Below, one piece after another: positions 4,592 to 47,988 of a stretch of 47,988 bases of DNA. Both the position numbers and the translations under genes were made by a program. The number at the start of each line of letters is the position of its first letter. The stretch's first letter is position 1. The notes under the pieces were generated by a model. That model was not told the origin of the DNA, did not search any database, and saw nothing but the letters and a program-made list of their open reading frames with translations. Origin of the DNA: a virus (lineage: Duplodnaviria; Heunggongvirae; Uroviricota; Caudoviricetes); the IMG/VR virus record IMGVR_UViG_2579778786_000004, positions 1 to 47,988 of that record; one strand, given 5' to 3'.

Positions 4592-6925
4592 TTAGGCCTC
4601 TTCAGTAGCTGTAATAATGTCAGCGCCGCACCAGTTTTGCAGTGCGTACGGTTTACCATTTAGTTCAGAAATTGATTCTGCTGCTGGCGAGCCGGTTACC
4701 AGTTCCCACTTATATGTTGATAATGAGTCGTCACTATCAGCGATATTGTGAACGCCAGAATGATAGGTTTTATCTCCAAGCCAAATATTTACCGGAGCAA
4801 CCAGTTTTCTTGATGCGACAATTTTAACTACCACGTCAGAAGCTAATGTCACGGTCAAATCTGAACCATACAAAACCCCCTGCGCATCTTTTATGGTAAA
4901 ACCTTTATCGGCAAAACTTGTTGCCACATTTCCTACATATCCGGGAGTAAATTTAACTGGAGGGACGGGAACCGAAAAAGCTATGTTAACTGTATCTTCT
5001 CTAAAAATAGCCTCGCGCATGCGAAAAACTGGCCTTCCGCATCCCCTTTGCACTAAATCCATAACCTTGCCTGCATCGCATCCAAACCAGCGATATGAAT
5101 TAGCAAACATGTGGTTGTCGTTGCCATCAGGATTCACTGGTTTTGGCAAATGTCCCACCGGATTAACAAATGTCGCCAAGCCTGGATTATTGTCGCAGAA
5201 ATCAAGAAGTGCGCGAGACACCGCCATTGAATTTGAATCAGAGGTATACGTGCCACCCGGTTGATAATTATACCAGTGCGGTGGCAGTGTCTGACCAAAA
5301 ATAGCCATCCCATCCGTGCAAATGTTGTTATAAAGCGTATTTAATGCAGTCATATATGCATCGTACGCCGTTGAACCATCGTTCTCGCCCTGCATCCACA
5401 TGAAGCCACAAAAGCGCGATGTCTTTCCTGCAGCATCTGCTGCGGCTTTAATAGCCTGAAGCGCGGTAATTACGTGATTATAGAAGTTGGGAGTCGCTCC
5501 TTTACTGAGCTGCGCGATGGTCTTTCCCCCAACACCACAACATGCGCCGGCAAAGATTCGCGACGAATCATTATCGACCATCAACCGCTGGTTATGCAGC
5601 AACTTACCGAAGTTAAGCCAGCCAGAAAGCGGGGTTTCACCGAAACTACCGGATGAAGGGCTGAGAGTGCCATCATCTAGCTGTCGCACCTCAATTAAGT
5701 TATTGAGATTGCTGTTTCCTACCGGGCCAAACTGATCTGATGTCGTGCCGCTAACGTAATTAGAGCCTCTCGGAGAATTGCCAAGCATCAGGTTCCCGAA
5801 CATGTTCAATACAGAGAGAGGCACCTGGCTATTCGTTCCGACAGAAAAAGACTGTCCATAAACAATATATATGTTTATATCTGCTGTCGGCATCTGTGTC
5901 AGGTAATAACGCTGCCGAATTGCCCCAGCGACCAGAGATAGAGAGTTGTTAGCTATTCTTGCTACAGAATCGGTGCCTGAAACCTCACCATCAACCCTAA
6001 TTTTCGTCTGGAGTTTGAAGTCTTTAGTTAACCTAAGAAAAACAATCCCGTCAGGGTCCTGCATTGTAATAATGTCAGAGCTATTCCCATCAACATAGAA
6101 CCTAATGGCACTTGACTCAATGCCAATATTGTTCCCAAGCATAGAGACAATTTGTTGTATCCAGTCATATTTAACTGTAATACCTAAACCTTTAGCCACT
6201 CCATTATTGAAGCTGGCGAGAATGCGACCATCCTCATCCTGAACAGAAAACCCATCCTCTGTAACTTTAAAAAAAGAAAAAATGGCATTTTCAAGCAACT
6301 CAGGCATAAGAGATACTTTGCTTGTTTTAAACCCTACCCCGCTATCATCCTCTTCTACTTTGGCAGCAATAAATCCGTCTTCATCGCAAAAATCAATAAG
6401 AGTTTCACTGTCTCCATTTTGATAAATGCTTTCTGCTACAGAATCGGCTTTCACTTTTGCCTCATCAACTGCAGCCTGTGACGGCATTTTCCTCCCGGTA
6501 GGTTCCAGGGTCCCTCCGTTATTAATAACTTCAATAGCCAGCGCGCTATCATCCGGGCTGCGGTAATACGTGGCGCTTCCTGTCGGAATATTAGCAATAT
6601 CTGCCTGTGCATCAGCAAGCGTCATGTATTGCTTGCTCAGAGGGATCAGGTTTTGGCGGGCTTCATCAATAACAGCGTCGGTAGCAGCTGCCATTTTTTT
6701 AGTAGCCCCAGTCATCGTATCCCGGGCGTTACCAAAACGATCTATAAAAGTATCGCTTTCGCTGTTCAGGAAATCATCGTACGCCAGGGCGTTATCATTC
6801 AGATCCTTCATGCTATTTGAAGGTCTTGGATTGCCGGTATTATATCTTTTGTCCATACCTGTTCCTGTCTTCATCTTTTCAATGAAGCAATTAAGATTGA
6901 CGCCCCGCCCCTTCAGGGCTAACAT
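4592..6925 (-). CDS. Large prophage protein with carbohydrate O-acetylesterase (SASA/SGNH, DUF303-like) domain, resembling prophage NanS-p-type esterases; likely true start at 6856 (MDKRY, RBS AGGAACAGG)
   Basis: 777 aa; central motifs GQSFSVG and WMQGENDG match the sialate-O-acetylesterase-type signature (GQSN..G / W.QGE.D); located next to tail fibre genes. Confidence 0.6.
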   Translation of the reverse strand: MLALKGRGVNLNCFIEKMKTGTGMDKRYNTGNPRPSNSMKDLNDNALAYDDFLNSESDTFIDRFGNARDTMTGATKKMAAATDAVIDEARQNLIPLSKQYMTLADAQADIANIPTGSATYYRSPDDSALAIEVINNGGTLEPTGRKMPSQAAVDEAKVKADSVAESIYQNGDSETLIDFCDEDGFIAAKVEEDDSGVGFKTSKVSLMPELLENAIFSFFKVTEDGFSVQDEDGRILASFNNGVAKGLGITVKYDWIQQIVSMLGNNIGIESSAIRFYVDGNSSDIITMQDPDGIVFLRLTKDFKLQTKIRVDGEVSGTDSVARIANNSLSLVAGAIRQRYYLTQMPTADINIYIVYGQSFSVGTNSQVPLSVLNMFGNLMLGNSPRGSNYVSGTTSDQFGPVGNSNLNNLIEVRQLDDGTLSPSSGSFGETPLSGWLNFGKLLHNQRLMVDNDSSRIFAGACCGVGGKTIAQLSKGATPNFYNHVITALQAIKAAADAAGKTSRFCGFMWMQGENDGSTAYDAYMTALNTLYNNICTDGMAIFGQTLPPHWYNYQPGGTYTSDSNSMAVSRALLDFCDNNPGLATFVNPVGHLPKPVNPDGNDNHMFANSYRWFGCDAGKVMDLVQRGCGRPVFRMREAIFREDTVNIAFSVPVPPVKFTPGYVGNVATSFADKGFTIKDAQGVLYGSDLTVTLASDVVVKIVASRKLVAPVNIWLGDKTYHSGVHNIADSDDSLSTYKWELVTGSPAAESISELNGKPYALQNWCGADIITATEEA

Positions 6926-14464: not shown

Positions 14465-16318
14465 TTAGTAATTCATGGCGGTTGTTATTCTGCCGTTATC
14501 CTCGACGTTATAGGTTTTCTTCTCCCCCTTATCATTGACCAGGGTGATTTCCAGCTTCATTTTCTGATCGGCCATCGCCTCTTTGAGGGACCGGGTCAGG
14601 TTTTCACTGACAGTGTCTCTCCCATTACCGGAAGCTGTCAGGATTGAGGTACTGTCAAACTTGTCCGGTTGCGGTACGAGGATGTTCTCTCTCTGCTGGC
14701 TGAGCACTCGGCTGTCACGAAGACCAGACCAGCGCGGATCACTGATAGCCGTCTGAATTGCCGCCCGTATCTCATCTTCAGAATATGGCTGCGCCCCATT
14801 CTCATGCTGAATCATGGCCGCCATGACTGACTTCAGCACCTCCGGGTTATGCAGATCCACCCGCTGATGGGGCTGAATACCTGTCGCGGCCGATACTGAA
14901 TTGATATAGGACTGCGTATCATTTTCCGAGCGTGGCGCATAAGTGTGGATCATGCTGTTCAGCGTGTTATTCCCACGATCGCCATATAACATCAGTTGCC
15001 GGGCCATTGCCGCCAGCCCGTCGCTGCTGTTGTCATAAGTGACGAAACCACGATTCACCCCAGTCGCATTAGGCGCTATCCGGAGATTGCCGGGGTTATT
15101 ATTTCTCAGGCCCAGTGCCTGGTTAGATGGCTGGCTGTAATTCACCTCTCCGCGTGGAGCTGCTGCACCTGCTGGCAGGATGACAGACAAATCATTTCGG
15201 AGTTGTTCAGCTCTGTCACTGGCGCCATATTGCGCGTCATAGCGTTTACGGACGGCATCAGTCATAAAGCCGGCATCCACCGCTCCGCGCTCGCGCCGGG
15301 AAAGGGTGTTATACAGCGCCTTATCACCCTGAATGCGGCGTAGCTTCCCGGCATCCTTGCTACTGATAAACCCCAGCGCATGCGACAGCCCGGTGAAATC
15401 GCCATTCGTGAACAAGTCGGTCACTCCTTCAAGGCCGTCTTTCACCGAACCATCAGAAAGCAATCCCTTAAACAGAGAGTTTTTCGAACGGTTTTTCAGC
15501 CCATCCCATGCAGCGCCCAGCTCATTCATGGAGCCGTTAACCTCGGACAATTGCCGGTTAAATTCCGGATCAACCGTCAGGCCAAGTTCATCAGATTTAG
15601 CCAGCAATGCTTTCATCCGTACGCCTTCACGCATCAGCGCCAGCATTTCCGGCGTCAACCCGAGGGCATCGGAAACTGATTTCTGCTGGTCTGGTCGCAG
15701 ACTCGGGAAAACTCGTGCTATCGACTCCAGCGTTCTCAGCGTATCAACGGATCCATCGTTGTTTTTCTGGATCTGAACGCCAATCTGTGACAATGCGCCG
15801 AGTACCTGGCTGTTGGCACCGCTGGCGGCCTCCTTCAGGCTTTTAGCCATCCCCTCAATGGAGGAATTTGCACTGTCGCCATCAGCACCCAGTATCCGCA
15901 TGGCACCGGACAGGCGGGAAAAATCGTCCACTCGCATACCCGCATTTTTCGCGGCGACATCGAGGTTATAGGCTTCCCTTGAGGCCTCATGGAAACCGTA
16001 GGCAATCCGTTTCAGCCCATATCCCGCCGCTCCAACCACCCCCAGCGATACCAGCTTACCGGAGAGCTCACCGACCATCTTCAGCGGCGGTACCATGTCC
16101 CCGATGTACTGAACATTATCACGGGCATTTTTGGACAGATTTTCTAAGCGGTAAATAAAGCCATTCAGTCCATCGAGGGTCTCCTGCCCTCCTAACTGGA
16201 GTCCCTCTTTGGTTTTATCCAGCTTTGGTTCCAGATCACGGATAGCCTCATTGATACGCTCAATGGCTTCCGTCGCCTGGTCGCTGGCCACCAGCTCAAA
16301 GTCGAAAGAATTACTCAT
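14465..16318 (-). CDS. Tail tape measure protein
   Basis: 617 aa, helical low-complexity protein downstream of the frameshifted chaperone pair. Confidence 0.7.
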   Translation of the reverse strand: MSNSFDFELVASDQATEAIERINEAIRDLEPKLDKTKEGLQLGGQETLDGLNGFIYRLENLSKNARDNVQYIGDMVPPLKMVGELSGKLVSLGVVGAAGYGLKRIAYGFHEASREAYNLDVAAKNAGMRVDDFSRLSGAMRILGADGDSANSSIEGMAKSLKEAASGANSQVLGALSQIGVQIQKNNDGSVDTLRTLESIARVFPSLRPDQQKSVSDALGLTPEMLALMREGVRMKALLAKSDELGLTVDPEFNRQLSEVNGSMNELGAAWDGLKNRSKNSLFKGLLSDGSVKDGLEGVTDLFTNGDFTGLSHALGFISSKDAGKLRRIQGDKALYNTLSRRERGAVDAGFMTDAVRKRYDAQYGASDRAEQLRNDLSVILPAGAAAPRGEVNYSQPSNQALGLRNNNPGNLRIAPNATGVNRGFVTYDNSSDGLAAMARQLMLYGDRGNNTLNSMIHTYAPRSENDTQSYINSVSAATGIQPHQRVDLHNPEVLKSVMAAMIQHENGAQPYSEDEIRAAIQTAISDPRWSGLRDSRVLSQQRENILVPQPDKFDSTSILTASGNGRDTVSENLTRSLKEAMADQKMKLEITLVNDKGEKKTYNVEDNGRITTAMNY

Positions 16319-16502
16319 CGGGTTCGGGATTCCTGAGTTTATTGATACGGGAGGCCTGCGATACCCACCACTTCAGACGGGCATAGGTCATGCCCCATGC
16401 CCTGTCTTCTGTCCAGCGGAAATAAAATGTGACGTCAGCCGCCGTTTCCTGCCAGGCGGTCAGGGCTTCCAGGTCAAAAAACCGAGCAAAAACTCCTCGC
16501 AT
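16311..16502 (-). CDS. Frameshift extension of the tail assembly chaperone (GT-like, -1 frame)
   Basis: ORF in the -1 frame overlapping the 3' end of the chaperone gene; reached by slipping at the heptamer complementary to 16475-16481. Confidence 0.5.
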   Translation of the reverse strand: MRGVFARFFDLEALTAWQETAADVTFYFRWTEDRAWGMTYARLKWWVSQASRINKLRNPEPDE

Positions 16503-16738
16503 TTTCGGAAGTCGATAAAATCCATCGGCTGAAGCACACTTTCCCGCGTATCCGTGACCAGCGAGATCAGCAGGCGCATCGCCGCCAGTGAAGTGGACGA
16601 TGCCTGCTTTTCGTAGAACTGCTCTGCCTGGCTGAGCGTCGGCGCCTTCAGCTCCAGTTGCTCATAGCGTGTTTTTTGCGCCTCATCGACCAGAGGCTTG
16701 ATGAGGGGAATGACTTTGGTGCGTTCAAGTTCTGCCAT
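16460..16738 (-). CDS. Tail assembly chaperone (G-like)
   Basis: 92 aa between tail tube and tape measure genes; ends just after a UUUUUUG slippery run. Confidence 0.6.
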   Translation of the reverse strand: MAELERTKVIPLIKPLVDEAQKTRYEQLELKAPTLSQAEQFYEKQASSTSLAAMRLLISLVTDTRESVLQPMDFIDFRKCEEFLLGFLTWKP

Positions 16739-16739
16739 C

Positions 16740-17111
16740 TTAGTTCTCCGTTACGTCCCGGCCTTCCCAGCGAACATCAAACACTGCATCTTCGCTTTCC
16801 ACTTCCTGAACGTTCACCGTCCATAGCGCGCGACCGATAATAGTCTTTCCGTTCGCCAGTTCGGCGATCACGTTGACGTTCGTCTGTTTGTTAAAACCCA
16901 GTACGTTGGTACCGCCGCTGTCGCGAAGACGGGCAGAAATATACGGGGCAACCGGCTTTTCTTTGTAGCCATGCACACCGTCCATGCCTGTCAGTGTGGT
17001 ACGGTTAACAGTGGAGGTCTGATACTTGAATGAGCCCTCCACCATAACGGTCACCCCGTTTACGGTGACATAAGCGGTACCTGCCAGGCGATTAGTGGTA
17101 TCTCCAGCCAT
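16740..17111 (-). CDS. Tail tube protein (Mu gpM-like)
   Basis: 123 aa directly downstream of the sheath gene. Confidence 0.7.
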   Translation of the reverse strand: MAGDTTNRLAGTAYVTVNGVTVMVEGSFKYQTSTVNRTTLTGMDGVHGYKEKPVAPYISARLRDSGGTNVLGFNKQTNVNVIAELANGKTIIGRALWTVNVQEVESEDAVFDVRWEGRDVTEN

Positions 17112-17114
17112 GTT

Positions 17115-18626
17115 TTATGCTCCTGTTGATTCAGCCTGCAGGCGGAACTGGTTAAGCAGCGCGAAGATGCGCAACTGGTTCATAAGCGTTCCCGGCCACA
17201 ACACATCGACGCGGTTCGGATTTGTTTTGTTCTGCTCCACGATAATGTTTCTGGCGAAGGCCTCAGCGTCCTGCGCGTAGCCGTTAAAGACCAGCGTCTG
17301 GTATTCCGCGATCTGATCGGCTCTGATGATGTTTGGCGTCACTATCGCCGCCCCCGGCGCAAAACGCGTGCCATCCGCGGCCAGCTTCATGCGACCAAAT
17401 TTACTGGTCACTGCAGTGCGGAGATATCGCGTGACAAACATCAGGCTGAAGAGCGTTTCCACCTGAAGGTAACTGTCGTCTTCGTCGCCATAGCTGTTTT
17501 TCTGGTAGGTGGTAATCAGGTTTTCAATCATCACCGTCCCGTCATCACCCACGGTGTAAGTGGAGATGCCGCTGTGCAGCAGGTTGTTGCGCTCTGTCAG
17601 CTCAAAGCGATCCGCCAGGTCCGGTGCCAGCACGCCATAAACAGGCAGACTTTGTAGCGGACGTGCGGGGTCATTACGCAGGCTGGGTGCGGCGGCCCCT
17701 GTCAGTGCCGCCGACCAGATATAACGCGGTGACGGTGAGCGATACACACCAAGCAGTGACTCATGCTGGTTATTACGGTTTTCCCCTTTGGTGCCAAGCT
17801 CGGCGTAAGTGCCGTTGGTAGTGGTGAATGCGTGGCCATAAAGCTGTTTATCCCATGCCCAGCGGCCGGTTGCATCGTTCAGAAATTCTCTGATGGCATC
17901 CAGTGATGCGGTGTCATCATAAGGGTTGATGACAAAATCAAAGGTCTTATCCTGCAGGTTGCCAAGGGCATCAACAAAATCCGGCGCGCCGTTGCCGCCG
18001 GTCATGCCCGTGATGGTGAGTGTCAGGCCCGCGGGCGTCACCTCACCACCCTGAACACCGAGATAATTCAGCCTGATATCAATACCATTGCCCAGCAACC
18101 CGGCATTTTTGGCCGTCAGTGTCACGGTATCCGTTGCATCGGCTTTTACAGCAGCTGTCACCGGCAGTTCCGTTTTGCGGGTAATCGCCGCGACCAGCGC
18201 AGTGGCAATCTGAGCCGGAGTGTCAGTCGCCAGTACGGTCAGTTGTACGCGAACGCCAGCAATATAAAGAGAGATAACGCCGGTTTCTGCCGCCTGTGTG
18301 GCAACCTTGATACTGCCAGTTGCCACTGCCATCGAATCCGCATCATCAGCCAGCGGAAGGATCCAGACCTCCGCAGCAGTATCGTTTTTTTGATACGCCG
18401 TCATCATGCCATGCAGCATTGATCCTTTTCCGGTGAGCTCACCCACCGCATTGGGAGAGGAGACTTTTACCGGGATTTTTTCCTGTGCAGAGCCTGATGC
18501 CAGCATCTGACCAATCAACAGCGTTCGTTGTGTAGCCGTCGCCGTGTTGGCCATGGAGTTATCAAACTCCACATAAAAAAGCGGCACACGTAAATTGCTG
18601 GGAACTCGCGAAAATGGAACGGTCAT
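17115..18626 (-). CDS. Contractile tail sheath protein (Mu gpL-like)
   Basis: 503 aa; size and position typical of myovirus sheath. Confidence 0.8.
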   Translation of the reverse strand: MTVPFSRVPSNLRVPLFYVEFDNSMANTATATQRTLLIGQMLASGSAQEKIPVKVSSPNAVGELTGKGSMLHGMMTAYQKNDTAAEVWILPLADDADSMAVATGSIKVATQAAETGVISLYIAGVRVQLTVLATDTPAQIATALVAAITRKTELPVTAAVKADATDTVTLTAKNAGLLGNGIDIRLNYLGVQGGEVTPAGLTLTITGMTGGNGAPDFVDALGNLQDKTFDFVINPYDDTASLDAIREFLNDATGRWAWDKQLYGHAFTTTNGTYAELGTKGENRNNQHESLLGVYRSPSPRYIWSAALTGAAAPSLRNDPARPLQSLPVYGVLAPDLADRFELTERNNLLHSGISTYTVGDDGTVMIENLITTYQKNSYGDEDDSYLQVETLFSLMFVTRYLRTAVTSKFGRMKLAADGTRFAPGAAIVTPNIIRADQIAEYQTLVFNGYAQDAEAFARNIIVEQNKTNPNRVDVLWPGTLMNQLRIFALLNQFRLQAESTGA

Positions 18627-30779: not shown

Positions 30780-30855
30780 TGGTGCTGTTTAACGGACTTG
30801 AACCGCTACCCATTCGCTTACAAGGCGACCGCTCTATCATTGGAGCTAAAACAGC
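30780..30855 (-). tRNA. Phage-encoded tRNA-Thr (anticodon UGU)
   Basis: 76 nt cloverleaf by hand: perfect 7 bp acceptor stem GCTGTTT/AAACAGC, D-stem GCTC/GAGC, anticodon loop CT-TGT-AA, T-loop TTCAAGT, 3' ACCA; D-loop lacks GG. Confidence 0.6.
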
Positions 30856-30860
30856 ATGTT

Positions 30861-30935
30861 TGGCGGGACAGCGTGGACTCGAACCACGATAAGAAGGTTA
30901 ACAGCCTTCCGTAATGACCTTTATACGACTGACCC
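30861..30935 (-). tRNA. Phage-encoded tRNA-Asn (anticodon GUU), one T-T mismatch in acceptor stem
   Basis: 75 nt: anticodon stem GAAGG/CCTTC, loop CT-GTT-AA identical to E. coli tRNA-Asn loop, T-arm CGTGG-TTCGAGT-CCACG, 3' GCCA. Confidence 0.6.
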
Positions 30936-46740: not shown

Positions 46741-47988
46741 CTATATTGCTGAAGGTACAGGCGTTTCCATAACTATTTGCTCGCGTTTTTTACTCAAGAA
46801 GAAAATGCCAAATAGCAACATCAGGCAGACAATACCCGAAATTGCGAAGAAAACTGTCTGGTAGCCTGCGTGGTCAAAGAGTATCCCAGTCGGCGTTGAA
46901 AGCAGCACAATCCCAAGCGAACTGGCAATTTGAAAACCAATCAGAAAGATCGTCGACGACAGGCGCTTATCAAAGTTTGCCACGCTGTATTTGAAGACGG
47001 ATATGACACAAAGTGGAACCTCAATGGCATGTAACAACTTCACTAATGAAATAATCCAGGGGTTAACGAACAGCGCGCAGGAAAGGATACGCAACGCCAT
47101 AATCACAACTCCGATAAGTAATGCATTTTTTGGCCCTACCCGATTCACAAAGAAAGGAATAATCGCCATGCACAGCGCTTCGAGTACCACCTGGAATGAG
47201 TTGAGATAACCATACAGGCGCGTTCCTACATCGTGTGATTCGAATAAACCTGCATAAAAGACAGGAAAAAGTTGTTGATCAAAAATGTTATAGAAAGACC
47301 ACGTCCCCACAATAAATATGACAAAAACCCAGAAGTTTCGATCCTTGAAAACTGCGATAAAATCCTCTTTTTTTACCCCTCCCGCATCTGCCGCTACGCA
47401 CTGGTGATCCTTATCTTTAAAACGCATGTTGATCATCATAAATACAGCGCCAAATAGCGAGACCAACCAGAAGTTGATATGGGGACTGATACTAAAAAAT
47501 ATGCCGGCAAAGAACGCGCCAATAGCATAGCCAAAAGATCCCCAGGCGCGCGCTGTTCCATATTCGAAATGAAAATTTCGCGCCATTTTTTCGGTGAAGC
47601 TATCAAGCAAACCGCATCCCGCCAGATACCCCAAGCCAAAAAATAGCGCCCCCAGAATTAGACCTACAGAAAAATTGCTTTGCAGTAACGGTTCATAAAC
47701 GTAAATCATAAACGGTCCGGTCAAGACCAGGATGAAACTCATACACCAGATGAGCGGTTTCTTCAGACCGAGTTTATCCTGAACGATGCCGTAGAACATC
47801 ATAAATAGAATGCTGGTAAACTGGTTGACCGAATAAAGTGTACCTAATTCCGTCCCTGTCAACCCTAGATGTCCTTTCAGCCAAATAGCGTATAACGACC
47901 ACCACAGCGACCAGGAAATAAAAAAGAGAAATGAGTAACTGGATGCAAAACGATAGTACGCATTTCTGAATGGAATATTCAGTGCCAT
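46741..47988 (-). CDS. cscB: MFS oligosaccharide:H+ symporter of the LacY family (sucrose permease CscB-like); host gene right of the prophage
   Basis: 415 aa, 12 TM segments, LacY-family motifs; N-terminus MALNIPFRNAYYRFASSYSF as recalled for CscB; start codon at window edge. Confidence 0.7.
   Translation of the reverse strand: MALNIPFRNAYYRFASSYSFLFFISWSLWWSLYAIWLKGHLGLTGTELGTLYSVNQFTSILFMMFYGIVQDKLGLKKPLIWCMSFILVLTGPFMIYVYEPLLQSNFSVGLILGALFFGLGYLAGCGLLDSFTEKMARNFHFEYGTARAWGSFGYAIGAFFAGIFFSISPHINFWLVSLFGAVFMMINMRFKDKDHQCVAADAGGVKKEDFIAVFKDRNFWVFVIFIVGTWSFYNIFDQQLFPVFYAGLFESHDVGTRLYGYLNSFQVVLEALCMAIIPFFVNRVGPKNALLIGVVIMALRILSCALFVNPWIISLVKLLHAIEVPLCVISVFKYSVANFDKRLSSTIFLIGFQIASSLGIVLLSTPTGILFDHAGYQTVFFAISGIVCLMLLFGIFFLSKKREQIVMETPVPSAI

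Follow-up and report, generated by a model that had tools for sequence, protein, structure and literature searches.

The tail assembly chaperone gene of the Escherichia coli prophage analysed here very probably carries a programmed -1 ribosomal frameshift at the heptamer U UUU UUG, as judged from the comparison of related sequences. We propose that a minority of the ribosomes on the 92-aa chaperone gene would slip back by one nucleotide at 16481-16475 on the minus strand, with the P-site tRNA-Phe and the A-site tRNA-Leu re-pairing on UUU UUU and decoding resuming at GAC in the -1 frame, which would give a 142-aa fusion (...LLGFL-DLEALTAWQ...PDE) ending 8 nt inside the tape measure gene, and that the non-slipping ribosomes would stop after ...GFLTWKP. 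The site adds one unannotated case to a class that is well known, and the device as such is ordinary.

The window, meaning the whole stretch of 47,988 nt that was analysed, is an E. coli prophage; the segment is 99.9% identical to chromosomes such as NZ_CP041110, and the prophage was found in 19 of 5,426 complete E. coli genomes. It adjoins a tRNA gene, which is followed by the gene of a tyrosine integrase (PF00589, with an arm-binding domain):

1009-1083: tRNA-Arg(CCT)
1209-2405: tyrosine integrase gene

Since host genes are present on both flanks, namely a formate/nitrite-transporter family gene on the left (1-933) and a LacY-family symporter on the right (46741-47988), the element spans roughly 1.1-46 kb. 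It combines a lambda-type head (lambda-family portal PF05136, gpA terminase and capsid E) with a Mu-type contractile tail, the marks of which are a gpP-like hub and a DNA circulation protein, and among isolated phages its closest kin are Citrobacter phage phiNP (77% nt identity) and Serratia phage BZS1 (48% aa identity in the fusion). The prophage also holds two adjoining phage-borne tRNA genes, tRNA-Thr(TGT) and tRNA-Asn(GTT), at 30780-30935 on the minus strand. In the tail fibre/spike region, a 777-aa protein (4592-6925, minus strand) has a SASA-type carbohydrate esterase domain (PF03629, E = 2e-6) and may be a receptor-modifying tail spike, while a plus-strand acyltransferase_3 gene (PF01757, 7221-8312), set among minus-strand tail genes, is a probable O-antigen-modifying lysogenic conversion gene.

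The part of the tail module around the site consists of the following features:

17115-18626, minus strand: tail sheath gene, 503 aa (PF04984 and PF17482; phrog_165, E = 2e-190)
16740-17111, minus strand: tail tube gene, 123 aa, directly 5' of the chaperone gene (PF10618 Tail_tube, E = 1e-35; phrog_185)
16460-16738, minus strand: frame-0 tail assembly chaperone ORF, 92 aa (PF10109 Phage_TAC_7; phrog_166, E = 2e-25)
16475-16481, minus strand: slippery heptamer U UUU UUG in the X XXY YYZ register (the reverse complement reads TTTTTTG)
16311-16475, minus strand: -1 frame extension, 54 codons from the re-read G plus TAA at 16313-16311 (phrog_10636, E = 3e-20)
16311-16318, minus strand: ATGAGTAA octamer, in which the extension stop overlaps the tape measure start
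14465-16318, minus strand: tape measure protein gene, 617 aa (phrog_2276, E = 7e-141; weak PF10145 match)

The order on the minus strand is sheath, tube, PF10109 chaperone, overlapping -1 ORF and tape measure, so that the space between tube and tape measure genes is taken up by two overlapping ORFs, as is typical of lambda G/GT. The chaperone ORF scores 29.9 bits against PF10109 (gathering cut-off 25), with residues 11-88 of 92 matched, and precomputed matches to this family, which Pfam words as 'Phage tail assembly chaperone proteins, E, or 41 or 14', are found for nearly all homologues. The 92-aa ORF is the counterpart of lambda G and P2 E, and the -1 extension is the counterpart of lambda T and P2 E'. 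As regards the tape measure protein, its residues ~391-532 match endolysin and tail injection transglycosylase PHROGs (phrog_873, E = 5e-42; phrog_7182, E = 6e-15), which suggests a peptidoglycan-degrading domain in the C-terminal third.

An earlier note, made from the letters of this DNA, had placed U-UUU-UUG at the complement of 16475-16481, shortly ahead of the chaperone stop, and TTTTTTG is indeed there, in register, starting 19 nt ahead of the frame-0 stop TGA (16462-16460), with 12 nt between the heptamer end and the TGA. The frame-0 codons are GGT TTT TTG, with UUU and UUG both in frame 0, so the slippery sequence lies within the ORF overlap in a register that permits re-pairing of the tRNAs, and the frame-0 product ends four codons past it. 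The predicted fusion is join(16738..16475, 16475..16311), and after the slip it reads DLEALTAWQ...PDE up to the stop. The same note had the slip leading into an ORF at 16311-16502; the frame does run to 16311, but the ATG start is a by-product of the ORF listing, as the -1 frame in the window is already open from about 16661, and the two frames therefore overlap by ~200 nt and not by 43. In a similar way, the junction that it gave as '...GF then FDLEALT' has the right -1 frame but presumes a slip before UUG is decoded, whereas the tandem slip gives ...GFL-DLEALT; the annotation of P2 E+E' uses this GFL-type junction, as in a standard tandem slip. A junction peptide CEEFLLGFLDLEALTAWQETAADVTFYFR (GFL-DLE) would thus point to a tandem ribosomal slip, and a junction peptide CEEFLLGFFDLEALTAWQETAADVTFYFR (the GFFDLE variant) would point to a P-site slip or to slippage of RNA polymerase.

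Taken by itself, the heptamer is not scarcer than expected by chance. The window holds 18 copies of TTTTTTG (14.7 expected), and there are 15 in-register XXXYYYZ heptamers (Y = A or T) in 26 kb of coding sequence, i.e., about one per 1.7 kb, with a chance expectation of about 0.11 per 200 nt and 0.011 per 19 nt. The acyltransferase_3 gene holds four in-register T6 heptamers (two TTTTTTG and two TTTTTTA), presumably as a by-product of a Phe-rich membrane protein, and thus the motif alone is not diagnostic. Since the motif is not unusual, the case rests on its position and conservation, for which relatives were compared.

We compared 59 distinct versions of the locus, with 47-100% aa identity to the window fusion, taken from IMG/VR contigs, GTDB genomes (Salmonella, Edwardsiella, Kluyvera and Citrobacter), phages phiNP and BZS1, and four distant contigs (Cedecea, Pectobacterium and two metagenomic ones). 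The scan of the GTDB genomes gave 7 close relatives only, and the remoter ones were reached via protein search and contig look-ups. All 59 belong to one Enterobacterales prophage lineage and are not independent observations. Start codons were counted on 55 distinct close relatives and alignment columns on 54 distinct sequences. Exactly six T followed by G (by A in Serratia phage BZS1) are present in register in 59/59 relatives, even as the frame-0 stop shifts among them (nt 276, 288, 294, 309 or 312 of the gene). The -1 ORF gets to the tape measure start in every relative with enough sequence (contig L176 stops inside the extension), and the ATGAGTAA junction is kept in the relatives that reach the tape measure gene, the exceptions being the Pectobacterium contig L174 and phage BZS1.

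Only 5 of the 86 third-codon positions 5' of the site are invariant in the 54 sequences. ATG codons account for three of them, which leaves the X base of the heptamer (its first T) and the G of GAG in a Shine-Dalgarno (SD)-like element, this G lying fifteen nt upstream of the heptamer's first T. The T at the X position is constant although its codon varies between Gly GGT and Ser AGT. Invariance just 3' of the heptamer is confounded by dual coding. One relative, L015 (IMGVR_UViG_3300030442_000031), has an additional in-register TTTTTTG, 12 nt ahead of the conserved copy and likewise in an open -1 frame; its two heptamers lie at nt 245 and 257 of the chaperone gene (GAT TTT TTG CTC GGT TTT TTG).

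The relatives bear the evolutionary signature of a recoding site in use. Upstream of the site, frame-0 codon diversity is 0.417 at the third position, against 0.125 at the first and 0.076 at the second. In the -1 frame, the values for positions 1/2/3 are 0.139/0.057/0.309 after the frame-0 stop and 0.092/0.049/0.343 in the part ahead of any possible start codon, so it can be seen that the third-position variation moves from frame 0 to frame -1 at the heptamer. It has to be considered whether the heptamer arose by chance and the 141 nt from the chaperone gene to the tape measure gene are a non-coding spacer, as nothing is annotated there in RefSeq or in the GenBank records of phiNP and BZS1, and in-register heptamers are as frequent as given above. 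Such a spacer does not agree with the coding-type pattern in the -1 frame, with a stretch that is open in every relative long enough and ends in ATGAGTAA in all but two, or with the phrog_10636 match of the extension.

It could also be supposed that the downstream frame is an independent small gene, translated without recoding from the ATG at 16502-16500 (MRGVFARFFDLEALT..., 63 aa). This ATG-initiated ORF is present in the window, and gene callers sometimes predict such pieces, e.g., a 62-aa gene in Pectobacterium and the family phrog_10636. Against this, there is no SD sequence ahead of the ATG at 16502, and in 25 of the 55 close relatives the -1 frame opens only past this ATG/GTG position (index 242), directly after which the column counts on 54 sequences indicate a TGA. 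In 5 more, a -1-frame TAG directly abuts the heptamer, which brings the relatives without a usable start, that is, with no ATG, GTG or TTG in the -1 frame between the last stop and the heptamer, to 30/55; the TAG in these five means that any frame change is confined to 19 nt. The first downstream start codon lies 90 nt past the heptamer in 27 relatives, and the stretch before it has the coding pattern. The -1 peptide is nevertheless conserved from DLEALT onward with coding-type substitutions, despite the missing starts, so that a downstream ORF without its own start is under protein-coding selection, as is characteristic of the G/GT type. Conservation, the frame switch and the lack of a start therefore lead us to discard both the small gene and the spacer, the former being highly improbable and the latter having practically no probability, and on the comparative data the frame change is placed at the heptamer.

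A further way to reach the same frame would be transcriptional slippage, where RNA polymerase adds one U on the T6 run, giving ...GFFDLEALT..., and ribosomes do not slip. In favour of this, the T6 run is a homopolymer, and inserting a single base there leads into the same -1 frame; moreover, one Raoultella assembly has T7 here, which fuses the ORFs, so the run is prone to length change, be it at the level of DNA or of sequencing. The run has only 6 nt, and exactly 6 in all 59 relatives, and productive slippage of bacterial RNA polymerase is reportedly (Wagner 1990; Baranov 2005) dependent in general on runs of about 9 or more. Slippage of the polymerase leaves unexplained why the register is X XXY YYZ, why position 7 is a purine and why a conserved SD-like element lies at dnaX-like spacing, and the homologous site in P2 is treated as a translational frameshift (PMC3091744). 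We thus consider transcriptional slippage improbable, although less so than the small gene, and we infer that the slip is ribosomal in nature. The Raoultella sequence in question (R. ornithinolytica L177, GCA_901420735, CABDVT010000002.1, 601-1005) joins the chaperone and the extension into a single 134-aa ORF, which a second 1-nt deletion further on truncates. Due to the T7 and this second deletion, we rejected the single-frame 'fusion' as evidence of recoding; the T7 is most likely a homopolymer assembly error or a sign of a decaying prophage.

Regarding possible stimulators of the ribosomal slip, a likely candidate lies upstream of the heptamer:

16493-16498, minus strand: SD-like GAGGAG, 11 nt upstream of the heptamer (-17 to -12), from conservation and anti-SD pairing

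The AGG core of this element is kept in all relatives, and it persists where the codon varies between GAG, AAG and CAG (E/K/Q). An apparent loss of the core in L015 was rejected, because the regular expression had been anchored on the second, upstream heptamer, and L015 has GAGGAT at the usual place. From -120 to +60, GAGGAG gives the strongest pairing with the anti-SD at the 3' end of 16S rRNA (mean -7.6 kcal/mol, background -0.27 ± 2.06). It is said, on the strength of Larsen et al. in 1994, that dnaX-type -1 frameshifting is stimulated by an internal SD-like sequence. The prophage has its GAGG/GGAG/AGGA element 6-17 nt upstream of the heptamer, as in dnaX and IS911-type sites, and its predicted anti-SD pairing is as strong as that of dnaX and at the same offset. 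According to the criteria of Sharma et al. for experimentally validated SD-like stimulators, the element is GAGG, GGAG or AGGA, 6-17 nt upstream and conserved in at least 50% of the family (PMC4066793), and GAGGAG agrees with all of these. Pairing of 16S rRNA with GAGGAG, a putative stimulator, thus probably helps the slip, as in dnaX and IS911.

U UUU UUG does not rank with the most efficient heptamers of the E. coli reporter survey (PMC4066793). Such a modest efficiency fits, without being positive evidence for, the low-frequency slip expected of this gene class, and from synonymous-site conservation we infer that the SD-like element would lift the weak heptamer to the needed slip level. No hairpin or pseudoknot that might credibly stimulate the slip is seen downstream. 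When 16 diverse relatives were folded together with RNAalifold, no conserved structure emerged there (-7.55 kcal/mol; covariation term -0.07), and a single-sequence downstream fold (z = -1.8) was rejected as a stimulator because it pairs the heptamer itself. In this respect the family differs from dnaX and IS911, which also use a downstream hairpin.

The closest known match to the prophage site is P2 E/E+E', the -1 frameshift of which is described in PMC3091744, citing Christie et al. 2002 and Xu, Hendrix and Duda 2004. In the P2 GenBank record the -1 frameshift is at TTTTTTG, with a 91-aa E and a 142-aa E+E', compared with 92 and 142 aa for the prophage. In both, the site lies between the tube gene (P2 FII) and the tape measure gene (P2 T) of a contractile tail, TTTTTTG has the context TC GGT TTT TTG (amino acids G-F-L), the frame-0 parts have PF10109 in common, and the ATGAGTAA octamer joins the extension stop to the tape measure start (E+E'/T in P2); the prophage thus has the P2-type arrangement of TTTTTTG near the end of an E-like ORF and an extension ending inside the tape measure start. 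A downstream hairpin is absent in both, and no conserved downstream structure is reported for P2 and P2-like phages (PMC3091744). By analogy with P2, and with the chaperone family PF10109 in common, the prophage site would work like E/E+E'. The claim of the earlier note that this is a G/GT-type frameshift between the tube and tape measure genes is accordingly supported by the gene identities, the comparison of the 59 relatives and the P2 layout.

Similarity at the protein level is faint. BLASTP of the prophage fusion against the P2 fusion gives 25% identity over 67 aa (E = 4e-4), with the alignment spanning the junction, and in hhalign with the family profile the -1 domains align (residues 98-133 with 101-136, E = 1.8e-4) at a probability of just 49%. 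The window fusion has no match to PF06528 (Phage_P2_GpE) at E <= 1, while P2 E+E' scores 76 bits, and due to this and the faint similarity the extension was not filed as a PF06528 member. A scan of viral contigs with P2 gpE found only sequences at least 99% identical, so no profile of the P2 family was built. No NCBIfam model matches either the window fusion or the P2 fusion. An AlphaFold prediction from the single fusion sequence was unusable (pLDDT 45.5), and a sequence search of the PDB with the fusion had as its sole match a weak one to a ribosomal protein, which was rejected as spurious. The prophage and P2 also differ in the position of the SD-like element (-17 to -12 in the prophage, AGGTG at -10 to -6 in P2) and in the surrounding tail genes, which are of the Mu type in the prophage (gpP-like hub, DNA circulation protein) and not of the P2 type.

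The Mu and prophage tail modules have the same order, i.e., DUF2635, sheath, tube, chaperone, tape measure, DNA circulation protein N and gpP-like hub, and the BZS1 record labels its tail genes Mup38 to Mup43. Mu gp41 and its extension are linked by a verified -2 frameshift (GenBank annotation; PMC5009743; Xu et al. 2004), while the prophage lineage would shift by -1, though its tail genes are in other respects nearest to those of Mu. The +1/-2 frame is closed in the prophage lineage, being open only at nt 265-301 of the gene in close relatives, and the conserved extension lies in the -1 frame, which does not correspond to a gp41-type -2 shift into the +1 frame. In addition, Mu gp41 has 144 aa and the prophage chaperone 92, and when the family profile was compared by hhalign with the -2 fusion of Mu gp41, no similarity emerged (E = 0.22), for which reason a likeness of the Mu and window extensions seen by eye was dropped.

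Compared with lambda, the likeness is one of layout. The -1 frameshift of lambda G/GT was reportedly described by Levin, Hendrix and Casjens in 1993 and by Xu et al. in 2013 and 2014. The lambda heptamer is G GGA AAG, unlike U UUU UUG in the prophage. The lambda tail is non-contractile and that of the prophage contractile, and no sequence similarity between lambda G/GT and the prophage proteins was detected. In both, a pair of overlapping ORFs separates the major tail gene from the tape measure gene, and in lambda a -1 slip occurs at a low level shortly before the upstream ORF ends, giving a fusion and a short product with one N-terminus, as we propose for the prophage. The chaperone logic, with the product ratio set by the slip frequency, is that of lambda and is presumed for the prophage. 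In lambda, it is the part common to G and GT that binds the tape measure protein; the tail tube subunit is bound by the T domain, and the proportion of the two products is critical (PMC5009743). By analogy with lambda G/GT and P2 E/E+E', both prophage products would be non-virion chaperones required for tail assembly, of which the shared N-terminal part may bind the tape measure protein and the -1-encoded C-terminal domain may recruit the tube protein.

RefSeq (PGAP) calls the 92-aa product 'phage tail assembly protein' and leaves the extension unannotated, and in the RefSeq, phiNP and BZS1 GenBank records the extension is an 'intergenic' gap of 121-141 nt. The unannotated gaps are, in the coordinates of the loci compared:

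L001: 3742-3882
L002: 3744-3884
L083: 2792-2912

In one Pectobacterium contig the extension is called as a separate 62-aa gene, and a tail-chaperone frameshift goes unmentioned in the papers on phiNP and BZS1. Since only the 92-aa product is listed, the predicted 142-aa tail assembly protein, which we take as essential, is absent from the proteomes of the family. The prophage family is widespread, with members in E. coli, Salmonella, Citrobacter, Klebsiella, Kluyvera, Edwardsiella, Pectobacterium and Serratia, and the main value of the finding is the correction of annotation; the site leaves the knowledge of tail assembly unchanged.

With its well-conserved U UUU UUG and upstream SD-like element, and without a downstream structure, the site could offer a simple setting in which to test SD-stimulated frameshifting. 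To hypothesize further, a P2-type U6G -1 signal may be at work here in a lineage with a Mu-type tail, driven by an SD-like element at dnaX-like spacing and without downstream structure, a combination that we put forward tentatively, giving it a substantial chance that falls a little short of favouring it. If it is true, one tail lineage could exchange its tail-chaperone recoding signal for that of another, and the family would be a clean natural model of the stimulation of a weak heptamer by an SD-like element only.
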